From the NCBI RefSeq assembly GCF_003334385.1, contig NZ_QOWN01000113.1: a stretch of DNA of 1,431 nucleotides. One strand, given 5' to 3'. The position numbers and the translations under genes were made by a program. How positions within the stretch are numbered: position 1 is the first letter of the stretch; every line of letters begins with the position of its first letter. The DNA is from Escherichia coli (lineage in GTDB: Bacteria > Pseudomonadota > Gammaproteobacteria > Enterobacterales > Enterobacteriaceae). The notes below the pieces were generated by a model, which was not told the origin of the DNA, did no database searches, and worked only from the letters and a program-made list of their open reading frames with translations. This document shows positions 1 to 1,431 of this stretch, in pieces.

Positions 1-122
1 CGCTCAAGCAACAGCGCATTCTGGCGCATGATCCGGTAAACACGTTTGGCATTGATCGCAGGCATACCATCAAGTTCGGCCTGTCTGCGAAGCAGCGCCC
101 ATACCCGACGATAACCATACGT
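1..122 (-). pseudogene. insD: Internal fragment of IS2 (IS3 family) transposase orfB/insD; 5' end and insC missing, continues past window start
   Basis: Minus-strand translation of 1-119 reads [40 protein letters not shown], which matches the IS2 InsD protein as I remember it (around residues 46-85). The frame upstream of this ([20 protein letters not shown]) is not InsD, so homology breaks near nt 122/123. No start codon or insC is present. This ORF is not in the supplied track because it runs off the window edge. Confidence 0.75.
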
Positions 123-144
123 GTCACGAACGGTGCAATAGTGA

Positions 145-169
145 TTCTTCCGCAACTTGGGTGGAAGAA
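145..169. repeat. Imperfect inverted repeat / hairpin (TTCTTCCGC-aacttgg-GTGGAAGAA)
   Basis: 145-151 TTCTTCC is the exact reverse complement of 163-169 GGAAGAA. The stem extends to 9 bp with one G-T pair (152/162) and a C-G pair (153/161), around a 7-nt loop. It lies 22 bp right of the IS2 junction and 47 bp upstream of the ORF start. No T-run follows on either strand, so it is not an intrinsic terminator. Confidence 0.4.
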
Positions 170-216
170 AATGGATGAAACTTTCTGGTGAACAAAGATC
201 TAAGCTGTTTTAAGTC

Positions 217-1359
217 ATGGGCAACTCAATGCACTCTCTTAAGACACTTCTACAGTTACCTTGCGGATGGCGATGCAGTCGACAAATTATTAGCTCTGAC
301 GGTATAACCCTCCATCTCCACGGAAAACGCAACACAGCACAATGTCCTGAATGCTTTAAGCGTAGCGACTCTGTTCATAGTTGTCGTCGGCGCCGGATAC
401 AGCATCTACCCTGCTCAGGACATACGCTATGGCTTGTATTTTCCGTCCGCCACTGGTACTGCCGTAACCCGGCTTGTTCACGTAAAATTTTTGCCGAGTC
501 GCTTGCTCCCTTCGCCGGTTCACACCAACAGTCTTCACTGGCGTTACAAAATTTACAACGTCAACTGGGATTAATCGCCGGAGGTGAGGCCGGGAAACGG
601 GTAGCAACGGCAGTGGGTCTCCGTTGCAGTGCTGATACTCTCCTTCGCAGGGTTATCAATACCCCGGAGACGAAACAGTCAGGCGCGCCTCATGTCGGTA
701 TTGATGAGTGGGCGTGGCATCGGGGCCACCGTTACGGTACGTTAATCGTCAATCTTGATACTCACCGTCCCCTCGTCCTGCTTCCCGGCCGTGATCAGCG
801 TACGCTGGCGACCTGGTTCAGAAAATATCCGGAAATACAGATTGTCTCGCGTGATCGCAGTGGAGTCTATGCGACAGCAGCACGTGAAGGTGCACCTCAG
901 GCCAGACAGGTGGCCGATCGATGGCATCTGCTAAAAAATATTGGCGATGCGCCTGAACGAATGATGTACAGACATATACCTCTGATACGTCTTGTTGCCA
1001 GTGAGTTGTCACCAAAGAAATCACCTGATCCAGAACCATCTGTGCCTGCAGCATCGCTCCGTCGTTCGGAACGCCTAAAACAACAAACCCGCAAAAAACG
1101 GCATCAGCGTTGGACAGAGGTTATGGCCCTGCATAACAAGGGATGTAGTTTCAGGGAAATATCCCGTATTACAGGCCTGTCGCGTGTGACAGTCAGTCGC
1201 TGGGGGCGTTCAGGAACATTCCCTGAAATGTCAACCCGGCCTCCAAAGCTAGGGCTTCTGGCCCCATGGAGGGAGTGGTTAAAAGAGCAACGAGAAAGTG
1301 GTAATTATAACGCTAGCCGGATATGGCGGGAAATGGTGGCCCGGGGATTTACAGCATAA
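217..1359 (+). CDS. ISL3-family-like transposase with atypical C-terminus (possibly inactive, chimeric or domesticated)
   Basis: 380-aa ORF with ATG at 217, an in-frame TAA at 211-213 just upstream, and stop TAA at 1360-1362. The N-terminus (LLQLP...CPECFKRSDSVHS...RRIQHLPCSGHTLWLVFSVRHWYCRNPACSRKIFAE) fits the zf-ISL3 pattern. An HTH-like stretch covers aa ~108-146. DDE-core motifs are present: GIDEWAW (Asp at nt 703-705), VSRDRSG (Asp at nt 853-855) and VADRWHLLKN (nt 916-918), comparable to the WDE / MDM / DRFH motifs of ISL3 transposases such as IS1167. No obvious Shine-Dalgarno sequence precedes the ATG. Confidence 0.8.
   Translation: MGNSMHSLKTLLQLPCGWRCSRQIISSDGITLHLHGKRNTAQCPECFKRSDSVHSCRRRRIQHLPCSGHTLWLVFSVRHWYCRNPACSRKIFAESLAPFAGSHQQSSLALQNLQRQLGLIAGGEAGKRVATAVGLRCSADTLLRRVINTPETKQSGAPHVGIDEWAWHRGHRYGTLIVNLDTHRPLVLLPGRDQRTLATWFRKYPEIQIVSRDRSGVYATAAREGAPQARQVADRWHLLKNIGDAPERMMYRHIPLIRLVASELSPKKSPDPEPSVPAASLRRSERLKQQTRKKRHQRWTEVMALHNKGCSFREISRITGLSRVTVSRWGRSGTFPEMSTRPPKLGLLAPWREWLKEQRESGNYNASRIWREMVARGFTA
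343..477 (+). other. Zinc-finger region (CxxC ... CxxxxC) of the ISL3-type N-terminal domain
   Basis: Cys43/Cys46 (CPEC) and Cys82/Cys87 (YCRNPAC) are spaced as in ISL3 transposase zinc fingers, with the conserved HLP..G..L.L....R.W.C block between them. Confidence 0.6.
1108..1206 (+). other. Second, C-terminal helix-turn-helix motif within the transposase-like ORF
   Basis: aa 298-330, RWTEVMALHNKGCSFREISRITGLSRVTVSRWG, has the classic L...G.S.REI....G.SR.TVSRW HTH signature. It is followed by RPPKLGLLAPWREWLKEQRESGNYNASRIWREMVARGF, which resembles the segment after the HTH in IS21 IstA and IS481-type transposases. Confidence 0.55.
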
Positions 1360-1431
1360 GCGCTAACTTAAGGGTTGTGGTATTACGCCTGATATGATTT
1401 AACGTGCCGATGAATTACTCTCACGATAACT

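Follow-up and report, generated by a model that had tools for sequence, protein, structure and literature searches.

The analysed stretch of Escherichia coli DNA, referred to here as the window, comprises 1,431 nucleotides of contig NZ_QOWN01000113.1 (assembly GCF_003334385.1). Nt 121-1354 represent a non-functional, nested copy of ISEc38, a catalogued member of the ISL3 family; by megablast, 98.5-99.1% identity to annotated ISEc38 copies in complete E. coli genomes was determined. The following features were identified in the window:

1-120, minus strand: fragment of an IS3-family (IS2-like) transposase gene, adjoining the left end of ISEc38 (megablast annotations).
121-165, plus strand: left terminal inverted repeat (IRL) of ISEc38 (window position 121 equals position 1501 of the intact copy L001).
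217-1359, plus strand: truncated ISEc38 transposase ORF (ORF list, comparison with the intact protein, NCBIfam ISL3 score).
334-468, plus strand: ISL3 N-terminal zinc ribbon, aa 40-84 (Pfam PF14690, E 8e-7).
694-987, plus strand: N-terminal part of the ISL3 DDE/RNase H-like domain, aa 160-257, with D163 and D213 (Pfam PF01610, model positions 1-105, E 2.4e-18).
916-1008, plus strand: D-x-x-H motif (D234, H237) and the following helices, aa 235-264, containing the ATGATG at 961-966 (invariance, predicted helices, motif definition in PMC7780238).
1009-1062, plus strand: flexible Pro/Ser-rich tether, aa 265-282 (predicted coil with pLDDT ~51, low conservation, variable length).
1063-1212, plus strand: conserved basic helix and IstA-like HTH-1, aa 283-332, including R323 (predicted helices, conservation, alignment with IstA).
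1213-1260, plus strand: inter-HTH connector with a conserved 'FPE', aa 333-348 (predicted coil, aligning with IstA residues 40-54).
1261-1353, plus strand: IstA-like HTH-2, truncated, aa 349-379 of 349-393 (predicted helices of the intact protein; ISEc38 homology stops at nt 1354).
1355-1431, plus strand: end of an IS186/IS421 (IS4-family) element, which cuts off the ISEc38 gene (megablast).

Three IS elements are nested in the window, with an IS3-family fragment on the left, followed by ISEc38 and by the end of IS186/IS421 on the right. The megablast matches under nt 1-120 are annotated as IS3 family, IS2 family or DDE-type integrase pseudogene, and nt 121 is the first base of IRL. The intact ISEc38 reference copy, L001, is located on a plasmid of E. 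coli M8 and contains a single annotated gene of 539 codons. Its imperfect terminal inverted repeats consist of 45-nt arms at positions 1501-1545 and 3222-3266, which are 80% complementary. In the window only IRL is present, and the right repeat (IRR) is absent because IS186/IS421 cuts ISEc38. A target-site duplication of 8 bp was sought, and no clear direct repeat was evident in the flanks of the intact L001 copy; the window copy is devoid of its right end. With nt 1340-1431 of the window as query, megablast retrieved 2742 E. coli records with at least 80% coverage, and the best 8 of these 2742 records, annotated as IS4-like element IS421 family transposase, were matched with 100% coverage and 96.7-96.8% identity. 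The complete three-element arrangement was found in no E. coli record of the collection searched by megablast. ISEc38 is a catalogued element, for which the literature searched contained no more than entries in mobile-element inventories.

The ORF at nt 217-1359 consists of the first 379 of the 539 codons of the ISEc38 transposase, followed by one codon and a stop that derive from IS186/IS421, and its product shows nine residue differences from the intact reference protein. With the NCBIfam ISL3 model (NF033550; cutoff 180 bits), the window protein reached a score of 260.8 bits and the intact protein one of 376.3 bits. In alignment A2, the cysteines C43, C46, C82 and C87 are invariant, as are the catalytic residues D163 and D213. 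The intact copy contains the complete DDE triad, whereas in the window copy only D163 and D213 are present; the cut at codon 380 has removed E508 and with it any catalytic activity of this copy. It is also devoid of the third helix of HTH-2, with T383 and R386, and of the whole C-terminal part, and is non-functional. Although the copy is truncated and inactive, the element belongs to the ISL3 family, as judged from the profile score, the zinc ribbon, the DDE residues and the inverted repeat. With the ISL3 family (PF01610/PF14690; NF033550) it shares the zinc ribbon, the DDE core residues D163 and D213, the D-x-x-H motif and a left inverted repeat of the ISL3 type.

The intact protein revealed a feature that sets ISEc38 apart from canonical ISL3 transposases. 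Its match to Pfam DDE_Tnp_ISL3 is split into two stretches, aa 160-295 (model positions 1-135) and aa 413-534 (model positions 116-240), and NF033550 spans aa 31-535 with only 368 model positions. Therefore, ISL3 homology resumes after an insert, namely at aa 413 in intact copies of 539 aa, and about 150 aa, consisting of a tandem HTH module and two flexible tethers, are inserted inside the ISL3 catalytic domain. This resumption is invisible in the window because IS186/IS421 removed everything after codon 379. The ISL3 character described in the earlier note as lost downstream of the motif at nt 916-951 returns in intact copies. While the ISEc38 clade carries about 150 extra residues within the catalytic domain, the canonical ISL3 transposases are shorter (412-438 aa), and the segment was absent from IS1251 (430 aa), IS1165 (412 aa) and ISSau8 (438 aa) in an alignment with these three proteins from plasmid records. 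Their annotated genes were fetched using a short probe peptide purely as bait, and the insert-less comparators comprise these three proteins and the Pfam and NCBIfam models only. In alignment A2, generated by MAFFT, the canonical 'KRYWKLL' was set under the basic helix of ISEc38. This placement was rejected, and the motif was assigned instead to the 'RWLM/WLL' helix at aa 413-416, since this is where the second Pfam match starts (model position 116).

The structure of the intact protein was predicted by AlphaFold2 on the basis of a 37-sequence alignment, with a mean pLDDT of 91.2 and a pTM of 0.74. From the first tether onwards, the AlphaFold2 model consists of the following segments:

aa 265-282: predicted coil, pLDDT ~51.
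aa 283-307: predicted single long helix.
aa 312-319 and 323-332: predicted helices of HTH-1.
aa 333-348: predicted coil.
aa 349-360, 366-375 and 382-393: predicted helices of HTH-2 in the intact protein.
aa 394-408: predicted coil of lower confidence.
aa 409 onward: predicted helices up to the helix containing E508.

The region at nt 934-1107, for which a sharp break at nt 951 had been reported in the earlier note, covers the transition from the ISL3 domain to the insert. Nt 916-951 encode DRWHLLKNIGDA, corresponding to aa 234-245 of the ORF, and the peptide quoted as following directly after this motif was confirmed by translation. D234 and H237 are invariant, also in the canonical ISL3 proteins. 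In the window protein, the match to the Pfam ISL3 DDE model indeed stops shortly afterwards (aa 257, at position 105 of the 240 model positions), but a sharp break at nt 951 was not identified: an 'EALERxLxRxxxxL' conservation reaches about aa 258 (nt ~990) in 37 homologues that are 33-42% identical to ISEc38, and the helical prediction, with helices at aa 235-251 and 254-264 in the AlphaFold2 model, continues to aa 264 (nt 1008). By its position behind the motif, the segment of aa 235-264 appears to form the first helix of an alpha-helical insertion domain. P246, which directly follows 'GDA', is polymorphic within the ISEc38 group (60 of 100 cluster representatives), and L, V, I or M is found at this position in 37 of 37 wider homologues. 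P246 was considered as a helix-breaking mutation specific to the window, which was rejected since it is a common ISEc38 allele.

The composition behind these helices is in agreement with the description of a Pro-rich and basic linker. In intact L001, aa 259-281 contain 22% Pro and 22% Ser, and aa 282-301 contain 45% Lys and Arg compared to 17% in the whole protein; in these two stretches, P284S is the sole difference between the window protein and L001. However, the low complexity is not uniform: only aa 265-282 are unconserved and represent the true variable linker, whereas a long helix begins with the basic stretch, which is conserved. The stretch corresponding to aa 259-281 comprises 19-78 residues among homologues, with ISEc38 being among the shortest. 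Taken as the mean frequency of the top residue, conservation falls from 0.66 at aa 225-258 to 0.28 in the first tether (aa 259-281). It reaches 0.52-0.58 in the basic helix and both HTHs, drops to 0.23 in the second tether and returns to 0.51 at the point where ISL3 homology resumes. Within the clade, R295, V302, L305, G309, I315, R323, T325 and V326 are invariant or near-invariant, and P336 and E337 of the connector are nearly invariant. Nt 934-1107 lie within one ancestral gene and encode the end of the D-x-x-H helix, a second short helix, the tether and the basic start of the long helix.

A relationship of the insert to the IstA transposase of the IS21 family was identified by several approaches. 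The NCBIfam IS21 model (NF033546) matched with positions 2-104 of 294 only (E 1.6e-16), with a score of 60.7 bits compared to a cutoff of 160. ISEc38 aa 302-398 align with aa 10-107 of IS5376 IstA (PDB 8q4d, 8b4h) with an E-value of 1.6e-10, and a profile of 22 diverse inserts searched against the PDB retrieved IstA aa 9-104 with an E-value of 3.8e-26 and a single gap of one residue. The next PDB match was 8vd6, 'CAP REPEAT' (E 1.4e-11), which covers profile positions 12-49 only and in which no single stretch passes the threshold; it was followed by resolvase HTHs at 5e-4, matching the first HTH only. On the structural level, Foldseek aligned IstA (8b4h_A) over 101 columns at the tandem HTH, with an rmsd of 3.5 A. 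The partial IS21 match, limited to profile positions 2 to ~104-112, was obtained for six of six insert-bearing ISL3 proteins and for none of the three canonical ones (IS1251, IS1165, ISSau8).

For IstA it has been described that residues 1-39 form HTH-1 and residues 55-104 form HTH-2, joined by a minor-groove-binding linker, and that R31, K32, T92 and K95 read the DNA (PMC10122671). R31, T92 and K95 align with R323, T383 and R386 of ISEc38, while the residue opposite K32 is V324. The clade shows a nearly invariant R323 and, in its consensus, an Arg at the position equivalent to K95. Judged from these alignments, aa 283-393 represent a conserved, predicted tandem HTH module, with three helices on each side of a connecting coil, which is homologous to HTH-1, linker and HTH-2 of IstA and in which the inter-HTH connector is the counterpart of the minor-groove linker. 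The similarity to IstA of IS5376 (PDB 8b4h, 8q4d) is collinear over the whole module, with R31 and T92 kept and a conservative exchange of K95 to R386. In contrast to IstA, the module of ISEc38 is not N-terminal, but internal, and is embedded in an unrelated catalytic domain. No IstA DDE core, beta-barrel or istB was found in ISEc38, in which nothing matches past IstA residue ~107 and only one gene is annotated. With a profile score far below the cutoff and without IstA core, beta-barrel and istB, the element falls outside the IS21 family.

The distribution of this architecture was analysed in a search of 1.84 billion representative proteins with the insert (aa 259-412), which gave 3170 matches at E<=1e-3 and 549 at E<=1e-10. 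For the best 150 matches, 149 proteins were scanned with the three parts of ISEc38, the ISEc38 protein itself being left out. A collinear order of N-terminal half, insert and C-terminal half was identified in 51 proteins among the best 150 of the 3170 matches, including nearly all of those longer than 500 aa. The rest of the best 150 were fragments, and an IstA-type architecture was present in none of them. Every full-length protein among the best 150 shows this order, at 31-46% identity and across several phyla, and plasmid-borne relatives with the same architecture were found in Klebsiella (75% identity), Streptomyces, Rhizobium/Sinorhizobium, Komagataeibacter and Acaryochloris; on a Bacillus badius plasmid, it is present as a pseudogene. 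Relatives that contain the C-terminal part of ISEc38 in the absence of the insert were sought by tblastn of aa 413-539 against plasmids, which gave almost only the insert-bearing clade. Its weakest match, from Bacillus badius, also carries the insert. Proteins consisting of the insert only were considered as stand-alone genes; the two of these that were checked on their contigs both turned out to be pieces of decayed insert-bearing ISL3 genes.

In the earlier note, the region was proposed as a recombination junction between two different transposase genes or, alternatively, as a natural interdomain linker. A recent in-frame fusion at about nt 951 of an ISL3 gene with an IS21-like gene, with the ATGATG as the old start of the latter, would be in line with the profile libraries, which assign aa 31-257 to ISL3 and aa 303-379 to the N-terminus of IS21 without any return of ISL3 similarity within the window. 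The expectation that the two parts match different IS families was correct insofar as the downstream part matches the N-terminal tandem HTH of IS21 IstA, but this part is an old internal insertion flanked on both sides by ISL3 sequence and not one half of an end-to-end fusion, as is evident from the return of ISL3 homology at aa 413. Both sides are collinear in one gene in all full-length proteins among the best 150 matches, and in Streptomyces, rhizobia, Acaryochloris, Klebsiella and Bacillus; they consistently occur together, the observation named in the earlier note as refuting a fusion, which identifies an old single gene rather than a recent chimera. Further, conservation crosses nt 951, and the comparison of codon usage suggested in the earlier note showed no difference between the parts, with a GC3 of 0.453 for the insert and 0.448 for the core and similar synonymous codon usage (permutation p = 0.29). 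The ATGATG at 961-966 is present and encodes aa 249-250, but a role as a former start codon is not supported: V/L/F and L occupy these positions in the wider clade, both codons lie inside a predicted helix with no Shine-Dalgarno-like sequence ahead of them, and the IstA-like part begins about 50 codons further on. On this evidence, a recent fusion is refuted, and the natural interdomain linker was the correct proposal.

The same two methionines might be used as an internal start for a shorter protein, consisting of the HTH tandem and the C-terminal part, which would act as a regulator of transposition like the Inh protein of Tn5. For other transposases, inhibitors with a shortened N-terminus are known, and of 120 close ISEc38 homologues (at least 83% identity), the 100 that match the search motif all contain Met-Met. 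However, inspection of the sequence revealed GAACGA before the ATG and no Shine-Dalgarno-like sequence upstream, Met occupies these positions in only 2 of 37 and 1 of 37 wider homologues, M249 and M250 lie in the middle of a helix in the model, and a separate ORF is annotated in no record seen. An internal start is thus very improbable, although not quite as much as the fusion, and M249 and M250 are ordinary hydrophobic positions of a helix. With high probability, nt 934-1107 represent a natural linker region within one ISEc38 transposase gene, in which an IstA-homologous tandem HTH is inserted in the ISL3 catalytic domain.

The position of the insert can be compared to other transposases. The C/DxxH motif was described to mark alpha-helical insertion domains within RNase H-like cores, and other domains of this kind were reported to contain, relative to the minimal one, additional material between the first and second helices (PMC7780238, the ISCth4 paper). 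The best Foldseek matches of the ISEc38 model were the IS256-family transposase ISCth4, as the top match, and Hermes. In ISEc38, the insert would be located between the first helix of the alpha-helical sub-domain and the 'WLL' helix, at which ISL3 homology resumes. Since it follows the first helices after D-x-x-H, it appears to occupy a permissive inter-helix site, and the order of secondary structure elements and the position of the motif point to an insertion between helices 1 and 2 of the insertion domain. ISEc38 would share with ISCth4/IS256, Hermes/hAT, the P element and Transib/RAG1 a C/DxxH motif at the start of the sub-domain and extra material after the first helix. The extra material in those proteins, however, is no IstA-type tandem HTH, and the helices are putatively equivalent.

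With its two flexible tethers, the tandem HTH could serve as an additional sequence-specific DNA-binding arm, either for the transposon ends or for target DNA, and it may also contribute to oligomerisation or to the assembly of the synaptic complex, as in IstA. A module that acts mainly in protein-protein contacts during oligomerisation and synapsis, or as a clamp for target DNA, and not as a reader of the ends, is considered rather unlikely. It would conform to the alpha-helical insertion domains of other transposases, which help to bind target or flanking DNA (PMC7780238), and to the fact that ISEc38 retains an N-terminal zinc ribbon and a three-helix domain of its own as possible readers of the ends. 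On the other side, the near-invariant R323, equivalent to the base-contacting R31, and the basic Arg at the position of K95 are consistent with retained DNA binding, whichever DNA is bound. Longer inverted repeats would be predicted for insert-bearing elements, but the four elements compared did not bear this out, with 45 nt for ISEc38, 25 for IS1251, 24 for ISSau8 and about 20 for an insert-bearing Streptomyces element; the length of the repeats gave no clear correlate of the insert.

The module probably stems from an IS21-like transposase and was acquired long ago. By parsimony, a transfer from IS21 to ISL3 would be the direction, because the module is N-terminal in the IS21 family profile and yet occurs in only part of ISL3. 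That a large and old ISL3 subgroup captured a complete bipartite DNA-binding module of the IS21 type, at the inter-helix site used by the insertions of hAT, P-element and Transib/RAG1, is put forward tentatively, at slightly below an even chance.

The region at nt 934-1107 belongs to the normal make-up of a catalogued insertion sequence and is not to be reported as a gene fusion, while the internal IstA-like module of the family is a modestly interesting architecture. No description of an IstA-like module inside ISL3 transposases was found in the literature searched, and InterPro, PROSITE, with its 'HTH IS21-type' profile, or ISfinder may already flag it for WP_075262665.1 / ISEc38. Since the profile libraries model ISL3 without the segment of about 150 residues, automated annotation misses the IstA-like module in hundreds of protein clusters. 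If the architecture is undescribed, it would represent a distinct ISL3 subgroup with a different recognition of ends or targets, and it would clearly exemplify how unrelated IS families exchange domains. This raises the question of how insert-bearing elements recognise their ends or targets in comparison to canonical ISL3 elements such as IS1251.

The helical region following the D-x-x-H motif (D234/H237) was identified as a match to the NCBIfam model NF049919 ('DesA/ISL3 alpha bundle tail') in the ISL3 loci L004-L007 and in the homologous proteins P0143 and P0195, and such matches were found in canonical and insert-bearing ISL3 proteins alike. In the insert-bearing proteins, profile positions were matched from about 30-58, which corresponds to the part C-terminal to the IstA-like insert. 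A match that begins only past the insert fits a placement of the insert near the start of the alpha bundle.

The 1.4 kb of the window consist of three insertion sequences, nested or abutting:

window 1-120: IS3-family (IS2-like) remnant
window 121-1354: left part of ISEc38
window 1355-1431: IS186/IS421 end

This exact arrangement was absent from the complete E. coli genomes in the collection, and the best E. coli records covered only nt 1-1354, split in two pieces. For the intact ISEc38 copy in the reference locus L001, no obvious 8-bp target duplication was identified in the flanks (1471-1500 and 3267-3300). The inverted repeats of this copy may be 2 nt ('AT'/'AT') longer than the arms that the repeat-finding software delimited.

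Among ISEc38 copies, proline versus leucine at codon 246 (window 952-954) is a common polymorphism: of 100 cluster representatives, 60 have proline and 40 have leucine. Residue 246 lies within a predicted helix, at a site where all wider-clade homologues have a hydrophobic residue. The coding region of HTH-1 contains a 19-nt inverted repeat (arms at window 1140-1158 and 1219-1237, or 2520-2538 and 2599-2617 in L001), the arms of which are 79% complementary and 60 nt apart; it may be due to chance. An apparent tandem duplication of HTH-2 was seen in one homologue, P0141 (columns ~443-560 of the homologue alignment), where the pattern 'SILDPYK..GCWNG..LGF.GSQP' is present twice, back to back.

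An insert of the same kind, shorter and more divergent, has also been identified on a plasmid of Streptomyces sp. ADI95-16:

L007 427-1908: ISL3 transposase of 494 aa

This protein matched the IS21 profile with an E-value of 1.5e-6, its first tether is nearly missing, and the inverted repeats of the element comprise only ~20 nt. The Streptomyces insert may represent an intermediate or a reduced form.
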